Source: a virus (taxonomy: Duplodnaviria; Caudoviricetes). From it: 64,000 nt of DNA. Shown here piece after piece: positions 1,443 through 62,503 of this stretch (its first letter is position 1; every line of letters starts with the position of its first letter). A program made the translations under genes and the position numbers. The notes under the pieces are model-generated. The model had not been told where the DNA came from, made no database searches, and saw nothing but the letters and a program-made list of their open reading frames with translations. The DNA lies in the IMG/VR virus record IMGVR_UViG_3300046490_000065, positions 30,629 through 94,628 of that record. One strand, 5' to 3'.

Positions 1443-3416
1443 CTACCTTCCCTCCCACACCTGGACTGATCCAGTAATCCAAGTGAACGTACTCGGAGAT
1501 GACAGCGTGACGCACACCATCGTTTGCGGAGCCAGCGTGCGCGCCCAACTCGTCAGGGTCGAGTCCGTAAGCTTCGCCACGCTCGACATCGACTCTCCAC
1601 CATTGCTGATATCACTAGCGGACGATGGTCCTGTGTAAGATGCCAACGCCACTGCTTTGACGGTGATTGTAACTGATCCGGCTTGATCCCCTTGCGCTGA
1701 AAACTGATTGATGTACCCACCGAATGGGACCAAGGTGCATCGGGTTGTGGTTCCGGAAAGCGCCGACCCGCCGCCGTCAAACGTGAATGGGATAGTGCGC
1801 CATGGCATATAATTGTTGGCGCTCCAAGTGGAGTCCGTGAGTGCCGTACCGGAAAAGTCTACGTAGTTTGTCTTCTCTATGTTGTTGTGGATCGCAGTAG
1901 AGTCACCGCAGAGGAATGGCCCTAGAGCATCGTACCAACCGTTATCTCCAATGTTCCAGTTGGTCGAATTGGATAACTTTATTCCGCACGAGTAACTGTA
2001 CGTGCAGGACCCAGCGCCGTTGATCGGCGCGCAGCCCTCCAGCGTGTTCCCGCGTATCGTGTTTGAGCGATTGTTGTACGCCGCGCTCTGCGCGTTAGCT
2101 GCCCTGATGATGGGTGGCGTCGTGCTCGTATTTCCCCCAATCACGTAACTGTTCAGGAATTTAGTATCATTGACGTTGCCTACCATGTCGAGGACAATCC
2201 CCATGCGCAGAAAATCCACCGTGTCGATTACGCTGCCGTACCCGCTGAACGGGTCCGTGATCGCTCCGGTAAGTGGGTAAGTTCCGCCGCCTCCCATCTG
2301 GATAGCTGTGTTGCACCCGCTTCCCTCAGCGACCGCCGAAAAGAAACTGGCATGATGGACCAGCAGTTTCGTTCCTGTGGTCAACAGAAACGTGGCGCAG
2401 TCCGTAGCGAAGTCTGCAATCGTCAAGTGATCGAGTTCGAGTGTGCCGATCCCGCTCGTCCAAAACTTCGGTCCCGCACTGTATCGAAGATCCAGGTAAG
2501 ATCCCTTGCTGACAGATGCCACAGAAACCAGCAAGTCATCCCCAGAGGACGCTCCCCCGCCAGATATCCTGATAGGTGGCATCGAATATCCAACCCCACC
2601 GTGGCACGTCACGATTTGAGAGTTTGCCCTAATACCTTTACCGGCATCGATACACAGGTGGCCTCCGTTCGCCGCGCAATACCCAGCAATGGTGGAATTC
2701 AGCCGCGTTGATTCGTCGGTGCCGTCGAGTGCGAACCCGAGCGACGAAGCCAGATCACAATTAGCGCCGCCACCCGAACCTGCTGGCCCCTGCGGGCCAG
2801 TTGCGCCCGTCGCTCCAGCGGCACCTTGCGGTCCTGTCGCGCCAGCAGGGCCAGTAGCCCCGGCCGGACCGGTGGCACCCGTTGGCCCTGGAACGGAGGA
2901 AGCCGCTCCCGTTGCACCAGTAGGACCCTGCGCTCCTGTGGCACCCGTAGCTCCAGTTGCTCCAGTTGCTCCAGTTGACCCCGTTGGACCTGTTGCGCCC
3001 GCTGGTCCAGTAGGACCCGTTGATCCAGTTGCCCCAGTGAACCCGAACGTTGCCCAATAAGTTGGGCTTGTATCTGGTTGATGCCCTGTATTGGATGATG
3101 CAAGAGAGATAAACGTCACTGCTGGAGTACCGTATGACACGACATCTAACGCAGCGTATGTTGTCCCCGCCGCGTACTGTCCACGCGCCACAAACGATCC
3201 GGTGGCTGCCGTAAGGAATCGCCAAGTGTCCGTCGCGGGGCAGTCGTACAACCCAGGATTGGTAGTGCCGGTCCGAAAGAAAACATCACCAGTCGCGGGC
3301 GAGCATTGTGATGGCAGCGCCGCGTTCCACTGGACGTGCCTTGCGATGCCAGAACTGGTCTGCGCCCACAGTCCAACATTGGACGCCAGAATCAAGAATA
3401 CTGTAAGTAGACGCAT
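1443..3416 (-). CDS. Collagen-like fibre with carbohydrate-binding-like repeat and beta-helix-like domain; signal peptide
   Basis: Long G-X-Y run (GATGPTG...), YAALDVVSY...PDTSPTYW motif, Asn/Gly-rich C-terminal half. Confidence 0.7.
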
Positions 3417-3835: not shown

Positions 3836-4690
3836 ATGGCGGAACTACCCGATTCCAAAGCAAGGGCATCCTGCGACCTCGATGGGGTGATCACGGTGGG
3901 ACCGGGCAAGACTCCCTACGACTTTGCCCCCGTGCGAACTGGTGCCCGCGATTTCCTCCGCACCCTCCACGAGCGCTACGAAGAAGTCATCATTCACACG
4001 GCCCGGCCGGTCGATGCGGCCAAGAACTACCTGCGGCAGAACGGTTTGTTGAAGTACGTGGCGGACGTCACCAACACGAAGCTCCCATCCAAGGTCTACA
4101 TCGACGACAGGGCGGTGGCGTTCACTGGGGACTTCGAAAAGACCCTGGAAGAGGTCGAGGACTTCCGGCCGTACTGGGCAAAGTCCGCGTCCGACGTTGG
4201 ACTAGATGATGCCTCCACCCAGTTCGACCTGCCGCCGGACCTTGCGGCCAAGGTGATCTCCATGGGGAAGAATGTCCCAGACTCTATGCTCCACGGTAAG
4301 GGTCGTGAGGAGCACCCTCACATTACCGTGCTCTATGGGATCGAGGACGAGACGCCGGACAAGTTGGCCGCCGCTCTCAAAAACTTCGGCCGCGTCCGAG
4401 CCCGGCTTGGCGCCACGAGCTTCTTCCGGGTTCAAAAGAAGGGGTTCGACGTCGTGAAGCTAACCGTCGCGTCAGAGGACTTGAAGCGGTTGCGCAAAGC
4501 GGTGGAAGCGGCGTCTAAGTTCCATACGGATTTCCCGGACTACGTGCCCCACGCGACGATCGCTTATACGAAGCTAGGCAGCGGAGAGAAATTCTCTGGA
4601 GATCGCACGTTGGCCGGCGAGGAATGCGTCTTCGACGCCCTTACGTTCTACGGATCGAATGGAGAACGGACGAGGATACTCCTGACCTAG
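3836..4690 (+). CDS. HAD-family phosphatase fused to 2H phosphoesterase (Acb1/T4 gp57B-like)
   Basis: DLDGV, HTAR, K...YIDDR HAD motifs; two HxT motifs PHITVLYG and YVPHATIAY; TATACT at 3823-3828. Confidence 0.8.
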   Translation: MAELPDSKARASCDLDGVITVGPGKTPYDFAPVRTGARDFLRTLHERYEEVIIHTARPVDAAKNYLRQNGLLKYVADVTNTKLPSKVYIDDRAVAFTGDFEKTLEEVEDFRPYWAKSASDVGLDDASTQFDLPPDLAAKVISMGKNVPDSMLHGKGREEHPHITVLYGIEDETPDKLAAALKNFGRVRARLGATSFFRVQKKGFDVVKLTVASEDLKRLRKAVEAASKFHTDFPDYVPHATIAYTKLGSGEKFSGDRTLAGEECVFDALTFYGSNGERTRILLT

Positions 4691-5320: not shown

Positions 5321-6584
5321 CGAAAGTTGCATTTATCATCCAGAAAGGGACCAGTTTCTAATCATCCGACGCCATTATGTGGAGATGTTCGGAGGTGACG
5401 TTGACCTAGCTGCATTGCTCGCCTTATTCGAGTTCTGGACGAATGGGGAGTTGGATCAGTTTGCCAAGCGGAGAGAGCAAGGAATCCCGTGGGTGACGGT
5501 GGCCATGCCAGTCATCGAACACTGGATGATGAACATCTGTGGACGTCGGAAGATCCAGGACAAATTGGCGCTCTTGGACAAGTGGGGACTTCTCCGGTCA
5601 AACACCCCTGGATGCCAAACTTCCAAGAGCTACCTGCTGAATATAGATGGCTTAAACCAACTCGTCCACTCTGGGGTTAAAGTGGACGAGTCCTTCATCG
5701 GCAATTTTGCCGATGGGGATGCTGCAATCACAGGGTCAAGTAAAGAGGTGATCGGCAAATCTGCCGATCAGAGTCAAGAGGTGAGTAAAGAGGTGATCGG
5801 CAAAAACGACCGAGCTTATGCATTTTCTGCCGATCAGAACGACGATGTATCATTATTGTGTTTAAAGAAAGAAGAAAAGAAAGAAGAAGAGGAACACAAC
5901 TCACCCTCTTTGGTTCCTTCGGAACCTGAAAACCAAAGTCAAAACCCGGATGTTCCTCCCGCCGCCGGCCGTCCAATGTTGGACGGGGACGAGACCCAGG
6001 AATCGGCCCGACCCGGCAAGCGGTCCTGGAAACGCCCAAAGCCAGAACGACCCCACGGGTTCTCCGATCGTATGCGCCAGCTTCGCGAGGGTGCCCACAA
6101 TCAAGCAGCAGACGGGGTAGAGCGGCTTATGACGCCTTCTCGCGTGGTGACCAGCGCTCCGGAGACCCCGATAGCTCCTGGGGCATCCTACGCTCAAGAG
6201 GAGACATTCCCCGTGAGGTGGAATCGGCTGGTACCGGCGCGGCCGGTGGACGCCGGGCTTCTGGCCCCAAATCCGAAGGCGTACCGGGAGCAGGTATTCG
6301 CCCAAAGGTTCGACGAGATCTGCCAAAAGGCCAGCGCTCTTATCGCGGCTGGCGCTGACGTGCAGTTCGGGTTTCTGTTGAGCACCGACCGAGGAACGGA
6401 GCAATACCGGTGGCAACAACTCCTGGCGGGCCAACTGGACTGGATGAAGCCGAGGGCCAACGGGAGCGTCAAGGAAGTGAAGAAGCCGGTAGATGGAGTG
6501 GCGATAGCCGCGCAGATGCGCAAGGAACGATTGGAAAGGGAGGCAAAGGAACGTGCCGCAGAAGTCAACCAAGACACCCACTGA
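5310..6584 (+). CDS. Phage replication initiator (lambda O-like organisation)
   Basis: GGAGGAG then ATG at 5310; winged-helix-like N-terminus, internal iterons, upstream of DnaB. Confidence 0.7.
   Translation: MAGSESCIYHPERDQFLIIRRHYVEMFGGDVDLAALLALFEFWTNGELDQFAKRREQGIPWVTVAMPVIEHWMMNICGRRKIQDKLALLDKWGLLRSNTPGCQTSKSYLLNIDGLNQLVHSGVKVDESFIGNFADGDAAITGSSKEVIGKSADQSQEVSKEVIGKNDRAYAFSADQNDDVSLLCLKKEEKKEEEEHNSPSLVPSEPENQSQNPDVPPAAGRPMLDGDETQESARPGKRSWKRPKPERPHGFSDRMRQLREGAHNQAADGVERLMTPSRVVTSAPETPIAPGASYAQEETFPVRWNRLVPARPVDAGLLAPNPKAYREQVFAQRFDEICQKASALIAAGADVQFGFLLSTDRGTEQYRWQQLLAGQLDWMKPRANGSVKEVKKPVDGVAIAAQMRKERLEREAKERAAEVNQDTH
5697..5890. repeat. Putative replication origin: iterons plus A-rich tract inside the initiator gene
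   Basis: 21-bp direct repeat AGTAAAGAGGTGATCGGCAAA at 5739 and 5784; inverted ATCGGCA/TGCCGAT pairs at 5697-5714 and 5749-5770; purine tract 5864-5890. Confidence 0.65.
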
Positions 6585-8271: not shown

Positions 8272-8569
8272 TCCGTGTTCGTGCTGCAAGAAGACTAACC
8301 AGTTTTGCCGTTGCACCCGCGAAGTTTGTGGCAAGTGCCACCAGTGTTCAGTCCACTGCGAGTGCTTCAACCCAACGTTCAGTCCAACGTTGGACTCAGT
8401 GCGTGAGCCGGAAGGCGACCGTGGCATCTGCCGGGCGCCAGAGTGCCGAGCGGTGATCTGGTGGCAGGTTACCGCCAAAGGGAAGCGTACGCCGGTCAAC
8501 GCCGATGGATCGCCACACTGGGCGGATTGTCCGGCGGCTAAGTCATTTTCGAAAAGGAGAACGAAGTGA
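8255..8569 (+). CDS. Cys-rich zinc-binding hypothetical protein
   Basis: Multiple CxxC pairs; GKRTPVNADGSPHWADC. Confidence 0.6.
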   Translation: MTKTTSPCSCCKKTNQFCRCTREVCGKCHQCSVHCECFNPTFSPTLDSVREPEGDRGICRAPECRAVIWWQVTAKGKRTPVNADGSPHWADCPAAKSFSKRRTK

Positions 8570-10972: not shown

Positions 10973-11460
10973 AACTCAGCATGGCAGAGCGCATAACGGG
11001 ACTTGAGATCCTGGAGATCCCCCGGATCGGCAAGAAGATCGGGACGGCCGTCACCTACGCTGCCTACGATGACGGGGTTGAGGTGATCCGCCGCACGGAG
11101 TCCGGACACTCCGCCACATTGTCGGCCGTGGTGGAGGTGCTCTACAAGAGGACCAGCCGTCGAGTGTTCGAGGAACAAAGTTTCTTGTGCTTCGTTTGCG
11201 GGCGGCTGCGCCCACTTCAAGCGGACCACATCCACCCACGGGCGCGTGGACGGTGTGACCAGCGATGGAACTTGCGTGGGGTATGTGCCGAAGACCATCA
11301 ACTCATAACAGACAACAAGCTGGTGGACCCGCAGCCTCATCCGAAGGTGCTGTCGGCCGTCCAGCGGCATGGGTGGACCTGGGAGCCGGATTCCAATGTT
11401 GTTGGCTGGCACCAACTGATCGAGAGTCCAACGTTGGACGCGGTGGAGGCAACGGCTTGA
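10948..11460 (+). CDS. HNH endonuclease
   Basis: CFVC...ADHIHPRARG...NLRGVCAEDH. Confidence 0.8.
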   Translation: MEQRGYVLKLSMAERITGLEILEIPRIGKKIGTAVTYAAYDDGVEVIRRTESGHSATLSAVVEVLYKRTSRRVFEEQSFLCFVCGRLRPLQADHIHPRARGRCDQRWNLRGVCAEDHQLITDNKLVDPQPHPKVLSAVQRHGWTWEPDSNVVGWHQLIESPTLDAVEATA

Positions 11461-13243: not shown

Positions 13244-15146
13244 GCTCACCGTACGGCTTTCCCAGCGTATTCCCCGGCTGGATCGTAACCGTCTTGTACC
13301 CTTTGGCCTGACACTGCCGGATCACGTCAAGCACCTGTGTCTCAAGATCCCCCTGCCCACCGATCTTCTTCGTCCACTTTAGGCCGACACCTGGAACTTC
13401 CACGAACAGAGACTTCGGAATCCCTTTGGCCGTTAGGCCCTTGACGATGCCTTCGCTGATCTCTGTTGGCGGTGGAACCGGCGGCTGGCCCGGTTTGGCC
13501 TTGGGCGCGGGAGCGGCCGGCTTCGCAGTCTTCTTCGGCGGCACAGCGGACTTCTTCTTGACAGTAGTCCCCGTAGGTTTGGCTGGTGGTTCGGGAATAG
13601 GTTTTACCGGCTCGGCGGCAGCGGCCGGCGGAGCAGACGGCGGATCCGGTGGCGGAGCGGGGGACGTAGGCGCAGGTTCACTTGGCGCGGCGGCGGCCGG
13701 CGGCTTAACCTCCGGCGGTCCAACATTGGACGGCGGCGGAGGTCCCGGTGGTTGGGCGGCCGGAGTGGCTGGTGCTGCCGATTTTCCTTTGACCAGTTCT
13801 TCGAATGGGGCCAAGTACTCCTGCATCTTCCGGAACTCGTCCATCACTGCGGCCTTCTTCTCCGGGGCCAACTCGTTGACGTTTACCCCGTCGAGCTTCC
13901 TTAGGAAACCATCCTGCATCTTGCTGATGAAGTTCTGGACTACCTCAGGCGGTTGTTGCTTGGCTAGTTCGAGTTGTTTCTCAATTGGAATATCCGGCTG
14001 TCCACTTAGGCCGGAAGGGTCCGGCGGCCCAGGTAGCTGCAATGGCTTCTTGGCGCGGAACCCCTCTACGATCTTTTCCGTCCCTTTGGTGTCGGGATGG
14101 GCCTGTTGTAACCGCTTGATCTCCGCTTCTGCCGCGCTTCGAGACTTGGCGGATATCCCTTTCTCATTCAACTGATCCTGTAGTTCTCCTATCCTTCGCT
14201 CGATCGCTGCTGGAGTCTTAGGTTCCGCCGCAAGTGGGGGTGGTGATGGCTTGCCGGACTTGCTCCTGGCATCCACCGCCTTCTCCGCATGTGAGGCGTT
14301 CGTACGCTCAGTTACCGGGAACTCTTTCCCTCCAACCTTGACGGACTCCTCTCCCCTTGTGAAGGTCTCTCCTTTGCCCATCTCGCCTTGCTTTAACTTC
14401 AACAGGCGCTCCCGAAGGATTGGTTCGATCTGCGCCTTGATCTTCGCCCGGTTGTAAGCCTTAGCGCCAACGATCAGACCTGCCAAGTCGCCAGCCACCT
14501 GAGCGTATTCCTCTGGCAATCCCATCCCCTTCAGGCTGTCGGTTACTACCGACTGGGACACTGAGGCGGTAGTGGCCACCTTAGCGAAGGTCAGGGGGTT
14601 CGTGGCGGCGGCTCCCATCATGATCGGAGTGGCCGCATCCATAGTGCCCTCTACGATCTTATGCGCGGCCCTAAATTTCTCCTTTGTGGTGTCGGAGGTC
14701 ATACCCTCGATACCTTGGGCCAATTGCCCCACTCCGTGAGTCGTTTTATCCAGAATCGACTGTGGGATATCGGCTGGGTGCTCACGCGCGTATTGGCTTG
14801 GCTGCTGGAAACTCATCTCCCACGGCAGCGCTGGCTTCCGTGGCTCCGGAGGTCCCGGCAAGGCCCCCAATTTTCCCATCCCAGGTACGGGTGGCTCCGC
14901 AGGTTTGGACGTGGATTTAGGCGGTCCAACGTTGGACGGAGGAGGCGTCGATGGAGGCGACGGTGGCTGGCCCGGCTTCACGCCGAACTTAGATCGTGCC
15001 GTCGCTAGGACTTTTTTCTGTACCTCTGGAGGAGCGTTCTTGAAATTCGAGTTCACGGAAGCCAGCGAGGAGACCTGCTCTTTTTCTGGCTTGTCCCAAA
15101 ACCCCGTCTGCGATACGATCTCTTGAGCGCTCTGTGTCTGTGGCAT
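13209..15146 (-). CDS. Pro-rich putative ejection/internal virion protein
   Basis: Follows the other ejection-type genes; N-terminal helical motif resembles that of 15150-18545. Confidence 0.6.
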   Translation of the reverse strand: MPQTQSAQEIVSQTGFWDKPEKEQVSSLASVNSNFKNAPPEVQKKVLATARSKFGVKPGQPPSPPSTPPPSNVGPPKSTSKPAEPPVPGMGKLGALPGPPEPRKPALPWEMSFQQPSQYAREHPADIPQSILDKTTHGVGQLAQGIEGMTSDTTKEKFRAAHKIVEGTMDAATPIMMGAAATNPLTFAKVATTASVSQSVVTDSLKGMGLPEEYAQVAGDLAGLIVGAKAYNRAKIKAQIEPILRERLLKLKQGEMGKGETFTRGEESVKVGGKEFPVTERTNASHAEKAVDARSKSGKPSPPPLAAEPKTPAAIERRIGELQDQLNEKGISAKSRSAAEAEIKRLQQAHPDTKGTEKIVEGFRAKKPLQLPGPPDPSGLSGQPDIPIEKQLELAKQQPPEVVQNFISKMQDGFLRKLDGVNVNELAPEKKAAVMDEFRKMQEYLAPFEELVKGKSAAPATPAAQPPGPPPPSNVGPPEVKPPAAAAPSEPAPTSPAPPPDPPSAPPAAAAEPVKPIPEPPAKPTGTTVKKKSAVPPKKTAKPAAPAPKAKPGQPPVPPPTEISEGIVKGLTAKGIPKSLFVEVPGVGLKWTKKIGGQGDLETQVLDVIRQCQAKGYKTVTIQPGNTLGKPYGEPISFQANPADE

Positions 15147-21293: not shown

Positions 21294-21880
21294 TTATTCC
21301 CCCAACTCTCTTCCGTCAGCACAGACAAGTACCCGGCACACTCCACTCCCCGCCAGCAACACAACCCAGGGATCGGCCCGAACGAGGTGAACCCAGATGC
21401 CTTCATGAACCGCACAGCCGGGACGTTCTTCTCCGGGGTTATCCCGTAGATGGCATCCATTGAGCATTCATTGAAGGCGAAGTCTAGCAGCGCTTTCCCC
21501 ATGTCGAGAGTGATACCCATCGCTTGGTATTCCCGCCAGAACACCTCACCCACGTCCGCGTAACGGCAACCGTTCCTGGTCTTGATGTTGTGAAGCCAGC
21601 CCAACCCGGCCAGCGTGATTACTGGCGGCGCGTCCAATGTTGGACCGGGAGTTTCTAAAAAGCACCCGGCCACAATGATGTTGGGTTGTTCGCACCATTC
21701 GAGAAACCCTCGAAGATCAGGGGGTTTATCCCAGAACATCATGGGCAACAACCCCTCCTGTTCCATCCGCAGGTAAGCTACAGCCAGCAGGCTTTGTCCG
21801 ATTTCGGATCGGATCTTGATCGCTCGTTGTTCCGCTACCATATCAGACACGAGTGTACCCCTTAACACTCTACAACGCAA
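21290..21880 (-). CDS. GNAT-family acetyltransferase (virion-morphogenesis associated)
   Basis: GITPEKNVPAVRFMKASGF motif; sits before the ejection genes. Confidence 0.7.
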   Translation of the reverse strand: MRCRVLRGTLVSDMVAEQRAIKIRSEIGQSLLAVAYLRMEQEGLLPMMFWDKPPDLRGFLEWCEQPNIIVAGCFLETPGPTLDAPPVITLAGLGWLHNIKTRNGCRYADVGEVFWREYQAMGITLDMGKALLDFAFNECSMDAIYGITPEKNVPAVRFMKASGFTSFGPIPGLCCWRGVECAGYLSVLTEESWGNK

Positions 21881-29788: not shown

Positions 29789-29828
29789 CGTCCAACATTG
29801 GACGATTCATTGTACCGCGTTGAAAGGA

Positions 29829-32295: not shown

Positions 32296-32349
32296 ATGCG
32301 TCCAACGTTGGACGGGGCGATGTCCGCCGGGCGCCGCCCCTCCATCGGG

Positions 32350-37741: not shown

Positions 37742-37930
37742 TGCTTCTCCTGTAGCGTCCAATGTTGGACCCGGTGGCGCTGTATCCGTCTGCCATCATT
37801 ACCGGCCTGAGTTCCTCTCACCGTGCCGAACCTTTAGAGGGAGCGACCCACCCAAAGGGGGTTGGGGTCCACGTCCCGCTTGCGCGGCACGGCGGAAACT
37901 GGTCTCCGTTGCCCCACCGAATCCAAGTAA

Positions 37931-42314: not shown

Positions 42315-43259
42315 CTACTGGACCGCCCCGGCTTTCTTGTCGAAGTACTCCTGGGTGGCCACACGGGCGATACCCTTGCCCAGCGGGATCTTGCTGGTGT
42401 CCAGATCGCCATCGGCCTTCTTGGGCATCCTGGCTTCGGCCCGGCGCATCAACGCTCCCTGGCGCCGGCCGCCGCCGCTGTCGCCGCCGTCCACGGGGCT
42501 CCGGTTCTTGCCGACTTCCTGGAGAGCCTTCTTGGTCCCTTCGGCCACGCCACGATCGTACTCGGCCTTCTTCTCGGCGGCCGTCTGGGCGCTGGACTTC
42601 TCGGTAAACTTGGTGGCGAAGAGGTCGTTGTACGCTTCGATAGGATCGATGTCCTGCCGAACGCCGGACTTCCTGAACCGGTCTTCAGCCATGACCTTCA
42701 TGTGCTCGATGACCTTATCCATCGGGAGCACTTCGCCGAAATCCTTCTCGTGTTGGCTGACCTTCGGGGTCAAAGCGGAGAACACCTTCTCGAATCGGCT
42801 GGTCAGGCCGTTGACCTTGGAGTCCAATGTTGGACCGACCTTCTCGTTCACGAGCTTCGTCATCTGGGCATCGAGGTCGGAGTTGCGAACCAACCCGGCC
42901 GCGTCCAGGGTTTCCTTCACGATCTGCTTGATTTCGTCGGGTGTCACTTCGGCGCTCCTTCCATTTTGCAGATCGGCTACAGTGGCCGCTGCCTCGGCGA
43001 GTGCTGTTTGCAACCGCTCGTGTTCTGTTTGCCATGCCGGCCAATCGTTGGCCCGGAATTTCCGCCAGTCTTCCAGTTCCTTGACCGGCGCTTCGAAGTC
43101 GTTCTCGTAGGTGGGGTGTAGGGACTTCAATCGCTCCCGCACCGGCTTGACCTTTTCCCCAAGCTCGAAGTATTCCTTGAGCGTCGGGAACTTGGCCGCC
43201 ATCTCGTTCAGCTTCACCTTGTCGTCGTCGGCTGCTAACTGCAAAAGGTTGTCAAACAT
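42315..43259 (-). CDS. Capsid scaffolding protein
   Basis: Charged helical protein upstream of the capsid gene. Confidence 0.7.
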   Translation of the reverse strand: MFDNLLQLAADDDKVKLNEMAAKFPTLKEYFELGEKVKPVRERLKSLHPTYENDFEAPVKELEDWRKFRANDWPAWQTEHERLQTALAEAAATVADLQNGRSAEVTPDEIKQIVKETLDAAGLVRNSDLDAQMTKLVNEKVGPTLDSKVNGLTSRFEKVFSALTPKVSQHEKDFGEVLPMDKVIEHMKVMAEDRFRKSGVRQDIDPIEAYNDLFATKFTEKSSAQTAAEKKAEYDRGVAEGTKKALQEVGKNRSPVDGGDSGGGRRQGALMRRAEARMPKKADGDLDTSKIPLGKGIARVATQEYFDKKAGAVQ

Positions 43260-44626: not shown

Positions 44627-45082
44627 TCAACCAGCGGCAGTAGCGTCCAACGTTGGACCGGCCTTATCGTAAAGAACGAGCGGAAATTTCTGCCGCTCAA
44701 CGACATGGGGGAACCGAGCGCATGCGTAAGCGAACGCCTCCTGAGATTCCGGATATCCAAACCCGCGCACGTAGAATCCTGAGTTGCAGGCTCCGCGCGT
44801 ATCCGCTGAGCGGTCCCACCAGCAGAAGGCATACCAGAACGCTTTCTCCCCACCGCAGGTAAAATAGACTCGGCCATCCGGAAGATCTCGGACCTTTCGG
44901 TTGCGGAGTAACGTGGCGTCCATGAGACCGTCATCCCAAGGGAGATCCGGCGGGCGGTCATCGTACAAGTGATGTCCGCTGACGTCATGGAGGAAGTGCC
45001 CAGCATAGCGCCAGCAACCAAAGTACAGGGCCAGCAACCCCAATCGCTTTCCCGCTTCAATCGATTCTTGCAAGGTGACCAT
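44627..45082 (-). CDS. Phage hypothetical protein
   Basis: YFGCW..AGHFL...WWDRSADTRGACNSGF motif. Confidence 0.65.
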   Translation of the reverse strand: MVTLQESIEAGKRLGLLALYFGCWRYAGHFLHDVSGHHLYDDRPPDLPWDDGLMDATLLRNRKVRDLPDGRVYFTCGGEKAFWYAFCWWDRSADTRGACNSGFYVRGFGYPESQEAFAYACARFPHVVERQKFPLVLYDKAGPTLDATAAG

Positions 45083-48447: not shown

Positions 48448-49314
48448 TCACGCTCTCCTGCGGTCCAAGTTTTGCTTTCTTACTTGATGGACATAGATGA
48501 TCGTGCATCGCTGTGAACAGGTCTGAGCCGTTTTGTTTTTGTAGATCAACTTCTCCGTCCCGCAGATCCGACATTTGAACTTCCTAGCCCTCACCTTGTT
48601 GCCACAGTACAATACCTGCAACTCATCGTCTTTAATCTTCCCATATTTAGAACGCTGCACGTTGCAGGCGGAGCACGACGGGACAAGGTTGGATGCAACG
48701 TCGTTCCCTCGGTTGGTGTCTATATGGTCAGCGACGATAGCGTTTGGACCCGGCTCTCCAACTGCCCATCGAATGTCAGCGCCACACCAATGGCAACCGC
48801 AAGGGAATGGCCCCACCTTCTCGTAAAGTATGGCGCGGCTTAAAAGTACGCTCCCATCTTTTCTGGCTAGTGGGTGGTTTGGCAGGTATACTTTTCGATA
48901 CGTGTTTTCTTTCAGGCGAGTGCTCAGCGGCTTACCGGTGAACGCTAGGTGCCCATCCCTGTATTCGTATGATTTGTTCCCCGCCGGTCGGCCGGGCGGT
49001 AACCTGTCATAGTGGCGGGTCCGGCATCTTTCTGCGCGGACGGTCTTCCTGTTTAGCAAGTCGAACCCATAGTCTCTCAGGCGATCAATCCATGCCCGTT
49101 CCTCATCTCTTGACGCGGCGTCTGGGTTCAGTATTCGGATAGCGGGGCGGCTTCCCCTTTGGACCAACTCTCTTATCCACGCAGTGCTAGGGATCTCCCT
49201 GTGAACATCCAGCGAGTGGCGGTTTAGCCTCTCGCGGGCGGTTGCTGTCGTTGACCCAACATAACGAGGAATCAGCGTCTCTGGTTCCAGTAATACGTAC
49301 ACGCACAAAGGCAC
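48448..49314 (-). CDS. GIY-YIG-like + HNH double-domain endonuclease
   Basis: VYVL...RYVGST...RL..H...E..WI...LLN, then ADHID...NLVPSCSACN. Confidence 0.7.
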   Translation of the reverse strand: MPLCVYVLLEPETLIPRYVGSTTATARERLNRHSLDVHREIPSTAWIRELVQRGSRPAIRILNPDAASRDEERAWIDRLRDYGFDLLNRKTVRAERCRTRHYDRLPPGRPAGNKSYEYRDGHLAFTGKPLSTRLKENTYRKVYLPNHPLARKDGSVLLSRAILYEKVGPFPCGCHWCGADIRWAVGEPGPNAIVADHIDTNRGNDVASNLVPSCSACNVQRSKYGKIKDDELQVLYCGNKVRARKFKCRICGTEKLIYKNKTAQTCSQRCTIIYVHQVRKQNLDRRRA

Positions 49315-50234: not shown

Positions 50235-50848
50235 TCCACCCGTCCAACATTGGACGCCGTTTCCTCAAACAGGCTACTCGCGTCTTCCTCGGCCGGCGGC
50301 GCCAGCTTCTTCTCGATCAGGTCCGCCAGTTCCGTCCCGGTGTTGAACTTCGCACCCAGGATCTCGGCCAGCCGTTCGGCCGCCACCTCGGTCATGAGTA
50401 CGTGGTGCGGCCGGGGGTGAAGCTCGTACACCCACTCGTTCTCCTGCACCGCGTCCACCACTTCCTGCATGAGCGCATCGACCGTCCGCTCCTGCGTGCG
50501 GGCCAGTTCCTCGTACGCCGGGTAGTTGGCCGGATCGATCAGCACGGTCACCCGGTGCTTCCCGTCCACCATTCCCGCCACGTCGCTGATGTAGGGGATC
50601 AGTTCCTCGGCGTTGCTCAATTGGACGCCCGTGGAATCCAGGACCAACTTCACATCATCCGGCGGGAACAGGACGCCGCCGGTCGCGATCTGGGTCAGGA
50701 CGTCCTCGGTCATGTCGCGGATCTTCTGGGAGGGCGATGCGTCCACCCCTTCCGGCATCTCCATCATGTCCGTCAGGATTGGGACGTGCGCCTCTTTAAG
50801 TTCGATTTCAAGGTTGTACTTCACTGTGTCGGTTGGCTTCTTTGCCAT
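50231..50848 (-). CDS. Acidic hypothetical protein, possible RHH-like segment
   Basis: AGGAG RBS; promoter TTGACT(50899)-17-TACAGT. Confidence 0.65.
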   Translation of the reverse strand: MAKKPTDTVKYNLEIELKEAHVPILTDMMEMPEGVDASPSQKIRDMTEDVLTQIATGGVLFPPDDVKLVLDSTGVQLSNAEELIPYISDVAGMVDGKHRVTVLIDPANYPAYEELARTQERTVDALMQEVVDAVQENEWVYELHPRPHHVLMTEVAAERLAEILGAKFNTGTELADLIEKKLAPPAEEDASSLFEETASNVGRVE

Positions 50849-52486: not shown

Positions 52487-52520
52487 GACTTATTTTCCGG
52501 TCCAATGTTGGACGCGTCGA

Positions 52521-53989: not shown

Positions 53990-54252
53990 GAGGATTTCTT
54001 CTTATCGTCTCGCGCCTGCTCTACCATGGCCTGCGCTCGTCCCTCGACGTTGCCCTGGCTCCTGGCCGCTTCCTTGGTGGCCGCCAGCAATTCATCCATC
54101 CGACTGTTGATCTGAAGGTGAACCGCGTCGATCTTCCTGCTGAGGATGATCCCCACGAAAGACAGGACCGCCGCAAAGATGGCCGGGGCTCCCGCCAGAA
54201 TCACCAACCACACCGTGAACTGCTGCGCTGGAATCATATTCATCGTCCCCAA
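53986..54252 (-). CDS. Small single-TM protein
   Basis: Hydrophobic N-terminus then VHLQINSRMDELL. Confidence 0.6.
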   Translation of the reverse strand: MGTMNMIPAQQFTVWLVILAGAPAIFAAVLSFVGIILSRKIDAVHLQINSRMDELLAATKEAARSQGNVEGRAQAMVEQARDDKKKSS

Positions 54253-56717
54253 TAATTCTCGCGGCTCTCTCCTGGGTCAGGCCGGCCGTTGCCCCGGAGA
54301 CCTTCCGGGTGGGTGTGCTGGATCACGCGCGAGTCATATCCCTTGTACGGCGCTATCGACTCGCCTTTCTCCCCAGTCTTAACCCCAAGCAGGGTATCAA
54401 GGTCCAACGTGGCCCGTGGGTCCGGAGCCTCCAGCGGGATACCAACCAGGAAGATGCTACCACAGTCTTCCTTCGGGCACCGGTACTCCGTGTCCGGCCG
54501 CGCCGCTCCCCACTCACAGCCGCATTTCTTGCAGATCATTTTGTAGCGCGGCGGTTCGACCTCTGATATAGCTAAAGGCGGGTTGATCCTCCCACTGTCG
54601 TCGGCGGCCCATTCGTGGGCACAGTACAGTGCGATCAACACAGAAAGGAGTTCGTCATCGTGGCAGCCCTTGGCGTGCTCGGCCTTCTTGTCGTCCTCGT
54701 CGTCCTTCTGGAAGGTCTGACTTTCCTCCACGAAGTTCGGCGAGCGCACGATGAACCACCCGGCCTTGATCCACTTCCGTCCCTGTTGCCACAGCTTCGG
54801 CTTCGTGTTCGGCTGAGTCATCCAGTGGAACTTGTTGGACATCGGGTCCTTCGAGTCCAGATGCTTCCACCGGAAAAGATTCGGGTACTGATACTGGCCA
54901 CGGACGGCATCGGCCACCGACTTATAGAAGTTGTACTCGATGCACATGAGGGCTTCGTTGTACATCCGGCCGATCGTGTTGGCGAAGAATGCCAGATCCA
55001 GCGGCTCAACGTCGTTCGATCTCCAAATAGCCACTTGCTCATCCGGAGATCCAGCCTTACCCAGTTTGTTCACCGCGATGACGGAGTAGTCCTCACCGAT
55101 TCCTTCAGCGATATCCACCCCAACCGAATACTCCCGGCCTGGGATCGGAGCTTCCCACTGGATGAAGGTGGACTCGTCCTCGCAGAGTTGCGACGTCCTG
55201 TGGTCTGCTGGACAACCATCCACAAAGCATCCAATTTTCAGTTGCTTGCTGCCATCACGGCCGCGATCAAACTTCACCCCGTGGAAGCGCCCCTTGGAGT
55301 CGATGAACCCCACCTTGACGTCCGGGCTCGTCAGGGGGTTCCTCACCGTGAGGGCCATCGCGTCCTGGCACGCCTCGTCGAACACGGCATATCCGGAAAG
55401 TTGCCACCCGTCTTCCGCCGTACAGGCAGTTTCCTGGTGGTGTAACTTCAATGATTCCTTATCTTTAGCCTCTGCGTTCTTCCGCTTGAGTTCCTTCCAT
55501 CGGAGTTGTTCGTCGGAAAGACACGCCGGATTCAGAGTTCCTTTATCGCAGGCCGGGCAGATCATTCCGATCCGACTCTCTCCGCCGAACTTAGCCACGT
55601 GATACTGAGCGCACGCATCACACTTAACCCACTCGCTCATGACGCGCTCTCGCAACATCCGTTCTGGCTTGTCAACGTGCCACCCTTGCGGCGGCGCCAC
55701 GACACGGCTACGCTCCAGAAAGAACGGCAGGAACAACGGATACCACTCAGCATCCTCTCCCATCTTGATATTGGCTTTCCACAGCATGTGTGAGTAGCTT
55801 CCGGAGCCTCGTCCGGTGGACTCCAAGAACCCAAACGAGTTGGGATCGTTATCGTGGATGGAGTGGAGCAAATCGCCTTCGATGATCTCCTTGGCCTTCG
55901 CCTGTTGGAAGTCTGAATACTCCGAGACGTGTGCGGCCGACAGCCGCTTACCTTGCCCGACGCCGGACAACTGGTTGGCGTGCTGCACGTAGATGTGCGA
56001 GTTCATGCCTGGGTTCCGCTGGCGTTGTTCACGGTCCTTGCGGTCGAAGTGAAGTCCACCTTTCACCTCCAGAGTGGCTGCTTCCGGCTTCAGCCACCAC
56101 GGCATTTTATCGTAAAAATGCAACATCAGACCGTACAGGTAGGAGCTTTGTTCTTCATCCACCGAGACCACGATGGCCTCGGTGTTTCGAAAGAACATCG
56201 TCCGCCAAGCTATCATGGCCTCGATGAGGAGCGAGCAACCCAATTGGCGCCCTTTCAAGATCATGATCTTCTGGGCGCGTGACTTCTTTTTCAACTCCAT
56301 CCATTTCTGGAGCACGAGCCACTGGGACTCCCACAGGGTGAACAGTTGGTCGTGGCCTTGGTCATTCGTGATCCAGAAGAATTGGCGGGCCGCGTAGATG
56401 AAGTCTCGGCGGCAGAACCGGGCTTGTTCCAGGACAGAGTTGCGCTCGTCTTTATTGAGGGTTTGGAACCTCTCATCCGGTCCCATCCGGTCCCACTCAC
56501 CCTCTCGGATGTACTTGTCCGCATGTGCGTCCAGGTGGTCCACGAGAAGCTGAACCCCCCGATCTCTCCCCTTGGGAATGACGAGGTTGCCGATCGATAC
56601 GGTGGCGGCTGACGGAGGTAGTTTCTTGGCCTGGGGGATGATTATGGCCGGCGGAATGATGATCTGCGGAGGCGGTGGCTGAATCAGGCAAGCGGCCGGA
56701 TCGAATAGGCTACCCAT
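54240..56717 (-). CDS. terL: Terminase large subunit
   Basis: LKGRQLGCS Walker A, HVSEY Walker B, EST coupling motif, VGVDIAEG and HDD nuclease motifs; Zn-ribbon inserts. Confidence 0.92.
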   Translation of the reverse strand: MGSLFDPAACLIQPPPPQIIIPPAIIIPQAKKLPPSAATVSIGNLVIPKGRDRGVQLLVDHLDAHADKYIREGEWDRMGPDERFQTLNKDERNSVLEQARFCRRDFIYAARQFFWITNDQGHDQLFTLWESQWLVLQKWMELKKKSRAQKIMILKGRQLGCSLLIEAMIAWRTMFFRNTEAIVVSVDEEQSSYLYGLMLHFYDKMPWWLKPEAATLEVKGGLHFDRKDREQRQRNPGMNSHIYVQHANQLSGVGQGKRLSAAHVSEYSDFQQAKAKEIIEGDLLHSIHDNDPNSFGFLESTGRGSGSYSHMLWKANIKMGEDAEWYPLFLPFFLERSRVVAPPQGWHVDKPERMLRERVMSEWVKCDACAQYHVAKFGGESRIGMICPACDKGTLNPACLSDEQLRWKELKRKNAEAKDKESLKLHHQETACTAEDGWQLSGYAVFDEACQDAMALTVRNPLTSPDVKVGFIDSKGRFHGVKFDRGRDGSKQLKIGCFVDGCPADHRTSQLCEDESTFIQWEAPIPGREYSVGVDIAEGIGEDYSVIAVNKLGKAGSPDEQVAIWRSNDVEPLDLAFFANTIGRMYNEALMCIEYNFYKSVADAVRGQYQYPNLFRWKHLDSKDPMSNKFHWMTQPNTKPKLWQQGRKWIKAGWFIVRSPNFVEESQTFQKDDEDDKKAEHAKGCHDDELLSVLIALYCAHEWAADDSGRINPPLAISEVEPPRYKMICKKCGCEWGAARPDTEYRCPKEDCGSIFLVGIPLEAPDPRATLDLDTLLGVKTGEKGESIAPYKGYDSRVIQHTHPEGLRGNGRPDPGESRENYWGR

Positions 56718-56720
56718 GAG

Positions 56721-57191
56721 CTACTCTTCTACGAGTACCGCATCTGGCGTGGGTTCGAACGAGATCACATCGAAGCTGGCTGGGATCGCCTTGCGCTGCT
56801 TCTCCTCTTCTTCGAGGATTCGCTGGATATCCTCGAACGACCTTGGCCCATCCGAAGCCCGGTGCGCGTGGCTTTCGGCCGTGTTGTTGTTCTGCTGGTT
56901 GACGTTAACCACCAAGCCTCTGTCCTTCGCGCCGGTCAATCCGAAGATTTCTGCGATGAGCTTGTTAGCTTGCATGTCGTTTAGGTGTGTACTCCGACGA
57001 AGGCTATTGATCATATCAGGGATGAGGATTGGCGCCACGGCCGCGAGGATGGCCTTCTGGTACGTGCCTTTACCAAGACTCTTGGCAGTGACGCTGCGGG
57101 TTGCGATCTTGTCGGGTAGCTTGATGTCCTTGATAGGTTTGCGGCCGTCCAATGTTGGACTGGCCGGCTTCTTTTTGTGCGAGGTGGCCAT
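56721..57191 (-). CDS. Putative terminase small subunit
   Basis: Directly upstream of terL; VNVNQQNNN beta tail. Confidence 0.6.
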   Translation of the reverse strand: MATSHKKKPASPTLDGRKPIKDIKLPDKIATRSVTAKSLGKGTYQKAILAAVAPILIPDMINSLRRSTHLNDMQANKLIAEIFGLTGAKDRGLVVNVNQQNNNTAESHAHRASDGPRSFEDIQRILEEEEKQRKAIPASFDVISFEPTPDAVLVEE

Positions 57192-59439: not shown

Positions 59440-60233
59440 ACATCCCCCTTCATTCCCTTGCCGGTGTTCGGTTGGTAGACTTCGGCCCCACGAACCCGCT
59501 CCACGGCCGCCTCGCGCGTGAGTCCGTATCGCCGCTGAAGCGCGAGGATCTTCTCCTCCTGTGCGGAAGTCTCATCATCCATCGTCTGGATCGAACCGCC
59601 ATTGAAAAGGACCTGCTGGAATTCCTTCTGCTGCTTGGCGAACTTGCCGAAGTCCAACACCACGGCGTCAAGCGCCAGGATCTTCTGCGCGTCCTGCTTC
59701 TTGATGAATAACTGGAGGTCGTCCAACTTGGAGATGACGCCTTGGAGATCGGCATGGAGGAGGAGTTCGGAATCAATCGCCTTCACGGCCAGTGCCGTAG
59801 CGATCTCTTCCAGGCGGCCGTCGATGCCCTTCCATTGTTCGAGTGCTTCATCAAACTGCTTCCGGCTTGCCAACTCGTGGCGTATCTCTGCCATCTTATC
59901 CAACATTGGACCAGTGGCCGTGGTAGACTCCATCATCGCAATGGCGAACACATGGAACTCACCCTGCAATGCGGCAGTGCGATCCACTTGATCCGTCAGC
60001 GCGTTACTGATATTCAGCAACATGCCGGACTGCATTCCCATCTCTGGATTCGGCCGGCGCAATCCTTCGTTCACCGATGCCAGCGCCACCAGGATCTCAC
60101 TGAGCCGCTGAACCGTCAGGTCTGCTTTACTGTGATGGTTCGGTAAATGGTGCAGCACCCACCGGAAACCCAGGATGATACCCGCAAAGCTGGCGAGCAT
60201 CCCCAGAATTACAAACACGTCTTTGATATTCAT
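59436..60233 (-). CDS. N-terminal TM + coiled-coil protein
   Basis: AAGGA RBS; helical. Confidence 0.65.
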   Translation of the reverse strand: MNIKDVFVILGMLASFAGIILGFRWVLHHLPNHHSKADLTVQRLSEILVALASVNEGLRRPNPEMGMQSGMLLNISNALTDQVDRTAALQGEFHVFAIAMMESTTATGPMLDKMAEIRHELASRKQFDEALEQWKGIDGRLEEIATALAVKAIDSELLLHADLQGVISKLDDLQLFIKKQDAQKILALDAVVLDFGKFAKQQKEFQQVLFNGGSIQTMDDETSAQEEKILALQRRYGLTREAAVERVRGAEVYQPNTGKGMKGDV

Positions 60234-60677: not shown

Positions 60678-61042
60678 TGTTTGTTACCTTCGTGTTCTTC
60701 AGCGGCGGCCAGCCACGCGGGGACTGGAGCGCCGTTGTAGATCATCTCCAGGAACTCCAGCGCCATCGTGGCGGCATTGGACTCCACGTCCTCGATCCGT
60801 TGCCAGTTCGGGGTGGTAGGGTCCGCCGCATCGCTGAACCGCTGCATGGCGTGGATCAGTTTGTTGGGGCCGCCGTGGCGAAGCTCATACATGAGCCCTG
60901 CTGTTTTGATTTGCTCGAAGATGAGCGTACACTTGTCAAACAAGAGGCTCCTCCAGGTTGGCTTGGACGAATGCCGACACCACAGCCTTGAAAAGGTAGC
61001 CCTTGAGCCGTTGCTCCACAGGGAGTTGTTCGTACGGCACAA
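60674..61042 (-). CDS. Hypothetical protein (true start probably near 60939)
   Basis: Operon continuity. Confidence 0.45.
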   Translation of the reverse strand: MCRTNNSLWSNGSRATFSRLWCRHSSKPTWRSLLFDKCTLIFEQIKTAGLMYELRHGGPNKLIHAMQRFSDAADPTTPNWQRIEDVESNAATMALEFLEMIYNGAPVPAWLAAAEEHEGNKQ

Positions 61043-61301
61043 GGCACGGGTGCGTCTTCAGGGCAGCGTTCTTCTCTGCCCCCCACACCCAACCATCCTT
61101 CACCTTGTCGGCGCACCAAGCATCGTGCTGCGTTGAAGCCGGCGCTCCTGGAGTGGAGATCGCAAACACTACCCCTTCAATGGCGGAGTACTTCTGCCAC
61201 TGTTCAGCCTCGTCCCATGGCTTCTGAGTTTGGTCACCGATCGTTTGGCAGAACGCTCGGTTTGTCTCGTGGCACACGCGTGCGATTTGTTCGATTTCCA
61301 T
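60936..61301 (-). CDS. RyR-domain protein
   Basis: QHDAW...GWVWG.EKN...KTHPCLVPYEQLP.EQR.K. Confidence 0.8.
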   Translation of the reverse strand: MEIEQIARVCHETNRAFCQTIGDQTQKPWDEAEQWQKYSAIEGVVFAISTPGAPASTQHDAWCADKVKDGWVWGAEKNAALKTHPCLVPYEQLPVEQRLKGYLFKAVVSAFVQANLEEPLV

Positions 61302-61302
61302 G

Positions 61303-62196
61303 TTACGCCTCCTGGACGGCCAGCTTGCCGTCGCCCTCGTAGCGGAAGGTCACCTTCGACAGGGAGACCTCCTTCACCACAACTTCCGTCTCTACCTGCG
61401 CCCGATTGTTCTTTCCCACGACCTTCAGCGTCACCGTCTGCCCCGGCCGACCCATGAAGTAGTAGGCATATTCAGCCGTGTTGAACAGTTCCACCACCTC
61501 GGCCTCATCCACCTGATCGAGATCGATCCAACTTTGGATCTGCTTGAGGATCGCCGCCTTGGTTGGCTTCACGTCCTTGGGAGTACGCTCCCGTGCTGTT
61601 GCCTCACGCGGCGCCGGACTCTCATCGTCCTGTTTCCCGCTGGCCGGGCTGGCTGCCGTTCCTACGTTCTTCTTGTCCGCCCGCTTCTTGGATTTCTCCG
61701 TCTTCACTTCCGGGGTCTCGCCGCGCCGGGCATCGGCGATCAAGCTCTGGGAGCACCCGACCAGACGGGCAAGGTCCTTGTCCTTCATCTCTCCCAGGTC
61801 GGCATCGAGTACCGCCATCTCGGCCGCGTGCCGCTTCTCGGCGTTCGTCATGGGAGCACCGTGGTGGCCGTTCTCCCCCAGGGCGAACCGGAGAGCCCGA
61901 GACTTTGTGCCCTGTCGGTAGACGGTCGGGATGGTCTCGGCCTTTTCCGCCAAGGCCGCGTCGATCCGGTGGAACCCGTCTGCGATCCAGCGTGGTCCAT
62001 CGTCGGTTTCGTAGAAGACGGTGATGGGATCCATCGTCCCTACCTTGCCGTCCTCTCCGTTGTCCTTCATGATCTTGCGGTAGCGATCGACCTTCGCCGG
62101 ATCGATCCCTCCGCGAACCTGGAGGGAGTGGTCGTACGTCAGGACCAACTCCAACGGTGCGCATTTTTTCTTGTCGGTTGCTATTGTCGGTGTCAC
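61303..62196 (-). CDS. ParB/Srx N-terminal domain + HTH protein
   Basis: PITV...IADGFHRIDAA, ENGHHG...T.AEKR, KDLARLVGCSQSLIADAR; GTG start downstream of the promoter. Confidence 0.8.
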   Translation of the reverse strand: MTPTIATDKKKCAPLELVLTYDHSLQVRGGIDPAKVDRYRKIMKDNGEDGKVGTMDPITVFYETDDGPRWIADGFHRIDAALAEKAETIPTVYRQGTKSRALRFALGENGHHGAPMTNAEKRHAAEMAVLDADLGEMKDKDLARLVGCSQSLIADARRGETPEVKTEKSKKRADKKNVGTAASPASGKQDDESPAPREATARERTPKDVKPTKAAILKQIQSWIDLDQVDEAEVVELFNTAEYAYYFMGRPGQTVTLKVVGKNNRAQVETEVVVKEVSLSKVTFRYEGDGKLAVQEA

Positions 62197-62220
62197 TTCG
62201 GTGTGCTCTCCATGGCATCC

Positions 62221-62249
62221 AGAGTAAACCCCCTCCACTATAAAGTCAA
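62221..62249 (-). promoter_or_regulatory. sigma70-type promoter of the ParB-like operon
   Basis: TTGACT-17-TACTCT, preceded by terminator-like hairpin 62271-62306. Confidence 0.6.
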
Positions 62250-62503
62250 GACCTTTCCTTTTGGGCAAACAAAAACCCCGGCGCGAGTGGTCTCGAAACC
62301 GGGGTCATGGCGCCGAGAAACTGGGGGTTAGCACTTCGGCAAAGGGAGATACGGTTTCAACACCGGGCGATACCCCAACTCCACGAGCCGATCATTCGGA
62401 AGCCACCAATCGCCATCCTCAACCCATCCCATTCCGCGCAGCACGTCGTACGGCGTGAGTGGGTTGCCTGGACCGGCGTTGCTGATTCCCGTCTGTTGGG
62501 AGA

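Follow-up and report, generated by a model that had tools for sequence, protein, structure and literature searches.

What does an orphan ParB-type protein do in a phage whose chromosome encodes no ParA? The phage record IMGVR_UViG_3300046490_000065 (G000 here; 94,628 bp, rated 100% complete) raises this question through a gene at 61303-62196 on the minus strand of the window, by which we mean the 64,000 nucleotides that were analyzed (bases 30629-94628 of the record). Its product joins a ParB/Srx N-terminal domain to a helix-turn-helix (HTH), and an initial annotation had paired it with 17 palindromic sites as a ParA-independent clamp system, a link that rested on co-occurrence only. We find that the protein is the best candidate for, and probably is, the reader of dispersed 14-bp near-palindromes and that ParA is absent across the clade, whereas the clamp part of the proposal draws no support from the protein sequence. 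The link is now stronger than co-occurrence, since the array and the gene diverge together among relatives, a distant relative has exchanged both, and copies of the motif lie at the promoter of the gene in several lineages. The best explanation as a whole, to which we assign a probability of about 0.5, would be a ParA-less ParB/Srx-HTH reader that marks or organizes the phage chromosome through nucleotide-gated self-association.

The palindrome GTCCAAYRTTGGAC occurs at 17 sites in the window compared to 0.9 expected, the number that had been counted initially, and at 29 sites in the whole genome, where the spacing is more even than random (circular coefficient of variation of 0.54, P of ∼2e-4, gaps of 818 to 8158 bp). 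By a crude gene call, 13 of the 29 sites are intergenic, many of these lying 15 to 35 nt before a start codon, and the remaining sites fall inside genes, including Gly-rich coding linkers, on either strand. In the window, the motif scan located GTCCAACATTGGAC at 3371-3384, 13718-13731 (within a Gly-rich coding linker by the gene call), 29790-29803 (intergenic), and 50242-50255; GTCCAATGTTGGAC at 5971-5984, 21632-21645, 37757-37770, 42822-42835, 52500-52513, and 57147-57160; and GTCCAACGTTGGAC at 8382-8395, 11426-11439, 14924-14937 (also within a Gly-rich coding linker), 32300-32313, and 44645-44658. Two further sites carry one mismatch each, GTCCGACGTTGGAC at 4189-4202 and ATCCAACATTGGAC at 59898-59911, the latter being the site nearest to the ParB gene, 1.4 kb downstream of it. 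A literature search on the motif string returned no paper.

The statement that no ParA or integrase appears in the window held when it was extended with Pfam models to the remaining genome. The ParA models PF13614 and PF01656 found no ParA in the window or in the whole 94,628-bp genome, where they matched nothing apart from the DnaB helicase, at its Walker A motif; the model for tyrosine integrases had no match in either. ParA and integrase were likewise not found in the related phages G001 and G002 (both complete), G013, and G020. The N terminus of the protein is without the ParA-binding LG(K/R)GL motif. The phage appears to be non-temperate, and the function of the protein is not partition.

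Evidence tying the gene to the array comes from these relatives, since gene and array (∼30 sites) persist together over five related lineages. Both G001 (103 kb, complete) and G002 (96.5 kb, complete, with direct terminal repeats) keep the ParB gene and have 32 and 27 sites, respectively, within two mismatches of the G000 pattern. ParB identity to G000 is 41 to 44% in these two genomes and 41 to 47% over G001, G002, G004, and G013/G014, all of which carry arrays and have capsid proteins 71 to 86% identical to that of G000; the G002 lineage consists of the 96.5-kb genome plus fragments, and G004 is represented by 18.8 kb only. The motif differs between lineages, as does the recognition helix of the protein. 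G000 combines GTCCAA-YR-TTGGAC with the helix CSQSLIADARR, G004 has GTCCAA-CATG-TTGGAC (16 bp) with CSPSLVASARK, G001 has GTSCAACGTTGSAC with CSPTLVGQVRR, G002 has GTCCCAC half-sites with VSLSLVGEIRR, and G013 has GTCCCAC/GTCCAAC half-sites with VSVSLVAGVRR. These pairs are consistent with coevolution of motif variants and recognition helices. In G004 (L386), the closest relative, the 16-bp palindrome GTCCAACATGTTGGAC is present in four perfect copies, with the same half-sites and 2 bp added at the center.

The distant relative G020 (76,424 bp, 75% complete; 44% identity in the major capsid protein) lacks both this ParB subfamily and the G000 motif. It encodes instead an orphan ParB of canonical type (GYRR, ENHERKDL) at L405:1468-2448 (+), and its own dispersed palindrome, GTCTNAATTNAGAC, occurs at 11 sites compared to 0 or 1 in shuffled sequences (L406-L409). 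At reverse-complement coordinates 71196-71508 of the 76,424-bp record, G020 also contains a 24-bp unit that includes GCAGTAGCGGTGCC and is present in 14 tandem copies. The ParB start codon of G001, G002, G013, and G020 is preceded, at 20, 7, 15, and 37 nt, respectively, by a copy of the motif proper to that lineage; this copy overlaps the −10 box, the 5′ untranslated region (5′UTR), or the point at which transcription starts. Individual site positions have mostly turned over while density was maintained across G000, G001, and G002: 4 of the 11 alignable positions are kept in G001 (among them the window sites at 21632, 29790, and 50242), and only 1 of 9 is kept in G002, where a second is 66 bp off.

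Most sites in G000, G001, G002, G013, and G020 pair a consensus half with a variant half at one lineage-specific position, and such heterologous sites are far commoner than independent half-sites would give. At the center of the G000 motif, 20 sites are C/T heterologous and 9 are symmetric C/C, with no T/T. At position 3 in G001, 21 are C/G heterologous and 2 + 2 are symmetric; at position 5 the A/C heterologous sites number 17 in G002 (9 C/C, 1 A/A) and 9 in G013 (2 symmetric). The orientation of the asymmetric sites shows no bias with respect to gene strand. The asymmetry suggests that selection disfavors perfect palindromes or favors one weak half-site.

The same asymmetry bears on whether the palindrome might act in RNA, as a hairpin of 5 bp with a tetraloop in 5′UTRs that affects mRNA stability, processing, or translation. 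Ribosome-binding sites do follow closely on many of the sites, both in G000 and in the marine phages described below, and the YR center would sit in the loop. However, 21 of 35 G001 sites pair GTCCAAC with GTGCAAC halves, giving a C-C or G-G mismatch in the middle of the stem, the sites of G002 and G013 are mostly A/C heterologous at position 5, G004 adds 2 bp at the center, and genes, on one strand or the other, contain about half of the sites. A simple RNA hairpin was therefore rejected, because most sites are asymmetric at one position and the stems in G001, G002, and G013 are mismatched, and an action in RNA of any kind seems to us highly improbable.

The protein itself was then compared to known families and structures; residue numbers follow a 321-aa frame, the actual protein having 297 aa. 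Its ParB/Srx N-terminal nucleotide-binding fold (residues 33 to 135; 61864-62172, minus strand, as are all features of this gene) is defined by profile, alignment, AlphaFold2 (AF2) model, and Foldseek, and contains the motifs QxR (residues 50 to 52), GFHR (98 to 101; 61966-61977), and EN (132 and 133; 61870-61875), as located by homologue alignment. A helical DNA-binding region follows (61663-61845), with model helices at residues 142 to 154, 163 to 170, 174 to 182, and 186 to 202, in which the HTH comprises residues 163 to 182 and the recognition helix reads S-Q-S-L-I-A-D-A-R-R. A disordered basic linker (residues 203 to 236; 61561-61662), with a predicted local distance difference test (pLDDT) score below 50 and the family-conserved ESPAPR..ATARER, leads to a C-terminal alpha/beta domain (residues 237 to 321; 61306-61560) that the AF2 model and the alignment show to be particular to the subfamily. 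The model has a pLDDT of 80.8 with a confident C-terminal domain at residues 237 to 310, which is presumed to serve dimerization; a comparison of this domain with a protein atlas gave scores of 0.81 or less and no informative match.

The ParB/Srx N-domain described initially was borne out by PHROG 1033 ("ParB-like partition protein"; E of 8.9e-13), by the family profile, and by Foldseek, and the domain order was borne out by the AF2 model. Against solved structures, the family profile matched ParB (E of 1.6e-7), Noc (5.5e-6), and sulfiredoxin (4e-4), as well as Caulobacter ParB and Spo0J, and it aligned to the HTH of Noc. Foldseek on the model returned ParB-CDP (6sdk; E of 3.4e-7) and KorB (8qa9; E of 6e-6), along with Noc and ParB-CTPγS, in alignments of 150 to 180 columns that cover the N-domain and HTH of ParB, Noc, and KorB and not the C-terminal domain. 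Pfam ParB_N matched weakly (E of 0.02), another Pfam scan gave no match, and the Pfam HTH_ParB model did not match the protein. Full-length homologues form ∼35 clusters in metagenomes, and a metagenome scan brought in only a single additional full-length relative, which belongs to the G002 lineage; distant relatives of the N-domain are found in metagenome-assembled genomes of Verrucomicrobiota, Planctomycetota, Acidobacteriota, and other phyla. Across 30 homologues Q50, R52, G98, R101, N133, K145, and R146 are invariant.

Taken together, these features lead to the following model. The two HTH domains of a dimer would dock on the two GTCCAA(Y) half-sites, and the N-domain, in which QxR, GxxR, and N are kept, would drive nucleotide-gated self-association in the form of clamp closure, bridging, or spreading. 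With about one loading site per 3 kb, the protein would mark or organize the whole phage chromosome or tune transcription, with no partitioning involved, and in the sister lineages it would also repress its own promoter. That it acts by nucleotide-gated self-association in addition to reading the sites, as KorB, Noc, and VirB do (PMC11790492), we consider plausible at somewhat less than even odds, and coating of the phage chromosome by the protein is pure conjecture.

Several observations weigh against this reading, beginning with those on the nucleotide pocket. The pocket is probably retained, given that QxR, G98, R101, and N133 are invariant over the 30 homologues, and in box I the residues Q50 and R52 align to the QPR of Myxococcus ParB. 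In box II, the GERRxRA of ParB aligns as G-F-H-R-I-D-A, so that only G98 and R101 are retained, the catalytic glutamate being lost together with two of three arginines. In box III (ENxxRxDL), N133 is invariant, some homologues have K, A, R, or N in place of E132, and the arginine has become His-His. Both the GFHR and the EN motif named initially are present, but the supposed arginine patch holds a single arginine and the glutamate of EN is variable. G-x-H-R is the sulfiredoxin-type form of the motif, which reads GCHR in Srx. A 2025 survey found lineage-dependent binding of CTP, ATP, or GTP by the ParB/Srx fold (PMC12704722). Because GFHR resembles the sulfiredoxin G-C-H-R and the fold accepts various nucleoside triphosphates (NTPs), CTP is uncertain as the ligand, and neither the choice of nucleotide nor clamp closure should be assumed. 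A CTPase clamp, as put forward initially, thus receives no support from the sequence, which has GFHR in place of GERRxRA and has replaced the box III arginine.

These changes favor a simpler possibility, in which the protein is a plain dimeric operator-binding or architectural reader that neither switches with nucleotide nor slides or spreads, and in which the N-domain has another or a degenerate role. The loss of GERR in favor of GFHR and the lack of conservation of E132 fit this view, as do the many sites located 15 to 35 nt before start codons, the sites on the ParB promoter or 5′UTR in sister lineages, and the use of the motif by marine phages as local clusters before early genes, beside a protein without the N-domain. 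ParBs that activate phage T-dioxygenases also function with their NTP residues mutated (PMC13229309). On the other hand, the invariance of QxR, G98, R101, and N133 argues for a kept pocket, and the even spacing, the sites in coding linkers, and the turnover at constant density would not readily follow from promoter control alone. We regard a reader of this plain kind as distinctly unlikely.

Other points on the opposing side concern the link between gene and array. The initial annotation had pointed to covariation of HTH residues with the motif as a means to examine this link; the variants do track lineages with different recognition helices, but the comparison is underpowered, with ∼5 partly related lineages of which two may be sisters. 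The motif at the ParB promoter or 5′UTR is seen in 4 of 6 lineages, with none in G000 or G004. Within 10 kb on either side of 60 other ParB-HTH phage loci, the only clear array was that of L014, an unrelated phage contig of 31 kb with 11 copies of AAACGGCCGTTK in 20 kb (L014:1147-19363). The ParB-like gene of L014 (9956-11257, plus strand), directly after a small-terminase-like gene, codes for a homologue of 433 aa that likewise combines the N-domain with an HTH, and this locus itself speaks for the link. At another locus encoding a ParB-HTH protein, four copies of GTGATCGATCGATCAC are found within 130 bp (L035:6556-6682).

A further difficulty is that the motif is not exclusive to the ParB/Srx-HTH family. 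An exact scan of viral contigs for the 14-mer GTCCAAYRTTGGAC found many low-GC marine phage contigs that carry it, from abundant phages distantly related to Roseobacter phages CRP-1, CRP-9, and CRP-345. Their sites form clusters of 4 to 8, have the same YR center, and are directly upstream of small early genes. Four of these phages that are 90 to 100% complete (G006-G009; L208-L220) have 5 to 8 sites each, within a few kilobases in three of them and over ∼14 kb in G008, and neither the family profile (positive controls below 1e-100) nor Pfam ParB_N detected a ParB/Srx gene in them. BLASTP of the marine phages against G000 found essentially no shared proteins and no common reader. Because the marine carriers without ParB/Srx share no BLASTP-detectable reader with G000, the ParB N-domain is, as judged from these comparisons, not needed to read this motif. 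Relatives carrying the motif without the gene had been named initially as evidence that would speak against the link, and G006-G009 represent this situation in part, since they lack the gene and are not relatives of G000.

The marine phages are also an argument for a second alternative, namely, that a host factor or some other DNA-binding protein of the phage occupies the palindromes and that the ParB/Srx protein serves, for example, as a nuclease, as an accessory in packaging, or to activate a DNA-modifying enzyme. The identical motif is present in these ParB-less phages and in fragments of other lineages such as G022, no BLASTP-detectable protein is shared between G000 and the marine phages, and the L014 homologue directly follows a small-terminase-like gene. 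G022 (the contig of L093 and L120; 31.7 kb, 13% complete, 48% GC), which may derive from a very large phage, has eight evenly spaced sites, seven of them perfect copies of GTCCAACGTTGGAC and one with a single mismatch. Against this alternative, ParB type and palindrome were swapped together in G020, four lineages have their own motif on the ParB promoter, and the Tet/JBP dioxygenase model PF12851 had no match in the G000 genome. We consider a reader other than the ParB/Srx-HTH protein unlikely in G000.

A possible reader in the marine phages is MP200, a protein of ∼200 aa from no known family, which is present in 33 of 33 loci with at least four sites and in 1 of 57 single-site loci (for example, L161:8829-9428 (−), L173:2035-2646 (−), and L207:936-1523 (−); 2389 database relatives). 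Since these loci stem from one phage group, the linkage is not independent evidence. When the MP200 model was aligned to 48,161 chains with VIA-align, the KorB operator-binding domain (1r71) ranked first with a Z score of 5.3 and Spo0J ranked 13th; the KorB score is within 1 Z of unrelated helical folds, a statistical tie that serves as a lead only but that, if real, would favor reading by a ParB-type HTH. Homology of MP200 to the ParB/Srx-HTH family was rejected (hhalign probability of 1%, E of 0.05, 30 columns only); reciprocal hidden Markov model matches between the two were consistent and not significant (E of 0.006; 0.086, 0.84, and 5.5). Pfam, PHROG, PDB sequence, and Foldseek searches returned nothing for MP200. 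In many members the linker of the protein itself encodes the motif, as S-N-V-G. The marine motif is read either by a ParB-type HTH without an N-domain or by something else, possibly a host factor.

Orphan ParB-fold proteins are common on phages, with roles that are mostly unknown (PMC12704722). A broader and more doubtful extension of the preferred ParB/Srx-HTH reader, which we offer tentatively, is that diverse phages in which no lysogeny or partition genes are seen may run a ParA-free "ParB chromatin," in which an orphan ParB loads at ∼30 evenly spread, mostly asymmetric sites and then coats, compacts, or insulates the replicating chromosome, and in which the sulfiredoxin-like pocket may use a nucleotide other than CTP. 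If true, this would also account for the Cluster O repeats discussed below and for the G020 and L014 arrays, and the marine clusters would be a local-operator form, read by a protein that resembles the DNA-binding domain of KorB and has no N-domain. Genome-wide dyad repeats of phages, as in Corndog, have been without a reader for a decade (PMC4351075), and G000 provides a candidate reader that can be tested. The five motif variants, the 2-bp spacer change, the joint swap of ParB type and palindrome, and the marine form lacking the N-domain make up a natural series that lends itself to direct study of how specifically the protein binds, which nucleotide it uses, and what the array is for. If the protein spreads from its sites, it would constitute a phage-encoded chromosome-marking system independent of partition.

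The gene is real and has the top coding score in the gene call of the window. Its open reading frame (ORF) extends from 61303 to 62268 on the minus strand in the window ORF list, and the stop codon is at 61305-61303. The GTG at 62196 is taken as the true start because the alignment of 30 homologues begins there, at "MTP," and a Shine-Dalgarno-like GGAGAG (62206-62211), read from the sequence, lies 9 nt before it. The end coordinate of 62249 given initially is the first base of the TTGACT −35 box and not the start codon. That box belongs to a promoter-like TTGACT-17-TACTCT (62221-62249), also read from the sequence. The claim of an own sigma70 promoter stands in that the pair is present and its boxes are clearer at the same place in orthologues (TTGACA-17-TACAAT in G001, TTGACT-17-TATAGT in G004), but the pair was missed by the promoter scan, being below its threshold. 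Further upstream, a terminator-like hairpin with a U-run (62262-62306, minus strand; RNA fold of −26.3 kcal/mol, z of −2.05) sets the gene apart from the upstream small ORFs, so that the order is hairpin, promoter-like boxes, GGAGAG, and GTG.

One base downstream, the gene at 60936-61301 (−) encodes a PHROG 5154 protein (E of 3.6e-44) of unknown function and is probably cotranscribed with the ParB gene; the other neighbors belong to no known family. Elsewhere in the genome a DnaB-like helicase, a thymidylate synthase, a Holliday-junction resolvase, a portal protein, a terminase, a major head protein, and tail fibers were recognized. The large terminase (54240-56717, minus strand) is unusually long at 825 aa, and an HNH endonuclease gene (48448-49314, minus strand) sits beside the portal gene.

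How the locus relates to known systems can be judged from several comparisons. Sulfiredoxin and the DndB-type ParB/Srx members, which bind ATP, share the G-x-H-R motif with the G000 protein (profile E of 4e-4 to sulfiredoxins) but are without its HTH-linker-C-domain arrangement, and we know of no site arrays for such proteins. The ParBs associated with the 5-methylpyrimidine dioxygenases of phages (5mYOX), which are of Tet/JBP type, have no DNA-binding domain, in contrast to the HTH of G000, a phage in which PF12851 is lacking. The stoperators of Cluster A mycobacteriophages resemble the array in providing dozens of short genome-wide sites for one phage-encoded DNA binder; they differ in that they lack symmetry, point along the direction of transcription, and are the targets of an immunity repressor in temperate phages (PMC4351075).

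Canonical ParABS systems share with G000 the N-domain fold, the central HTH, a C-terminal domain, and a palindrome of parS layout. The parS consensus is GTTTCAC GTGAAAC, a palindrome of 14 to 16 bp centered on CG, and the GTCCCAC GTGGGAC of G002 has the same layout. These systems differ from G000 in possessing ParA, LG(K/R)GL, and GERRxRA and in having few sites near the origin compared to ∼30. Membership of the protein among canonical ParBs fails because box II differs and there is no ParA. Noc of Bacillus subtilis comes closer, as an orphan ParB paralogue without ParA that has dispersed 14-bp palindromes, the Noc-binding sites (NBS). It acts on a bacterial chromosome, binds CTP, has a box II different from that of the G000 protein, and tethers DNA to the membrane by an N-terminal amphipathic helix; the N terminus of the G000 protein (MTPTIATDKKK...) is modeled with low confidence and has no predicted helix, although no test dedicated to amphipathic helices was made.

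For KorB of the IncP plasmid RK2, about a dozen operator sites are spread over 60 kb, compared to 29 sites on 95 kb, many of them inside genes, in G000. KorB and its operator OB (PMC11790492; 1r71, 8qa8, and 8qa9) combine a ParB fold and HTH with a short palindrome dispersed on one replicon, as in G000, where ∼13 of the many sites are intergenic and the protein would bind them in the same manner. KorB, to which we liken the G000 protein, serves gene control rather than partition. Its CTP boxes are intact and its action as a CTP clamp is proven (PMC11790492), whereas the G000 protein has GFHR. KorB has KorA and the ParA homologue IncC as partners, whereas G000 is without ParA and has no known KorA-like partner, no systematic search for one having been made.

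Among phages, the Cluster O mycobacteriophages (Corndog and its relatives) were described in 2015 as having a 17-bp dyad repeat, TGTTCGGNNNCCGAACA, and a protein with a ParB-like domain, gp90 (PMC4351075). Their genomes of ∼70 kb hold more than 30 dyad-symmetric sites, which, as in G000, are distributed both between and inside genes. They also resemble G000 in encoding a ParB-like domain while lacking an integrase and parAB, and the binder of the repeats was predicted in that study to be dimeric and to serve a purpose other than initiating transcription (PMC4351075). Our own check of the Corndog repeat found 23 copies of TGTTCGGNNNCCGAACA in a 21.8-kb stretch. Cluster O differs in that its repeats were never given a reader and gp90 was not tied to them (PMC4351075), that gp90 (502 aa, GQRR box) is only remotely similar to the G000 family (hhalign probability of 17%), and that its motif has a 3-bp spacer and invariant arms, whereas G000 has contiguous arms and, in most of its sites, a single asymmetric position. 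By analogy with these systems, the ParB/Srx-HTH protein of G000 would work most like KorB or Noc, and the Cluster O array is its closest natural parallel.

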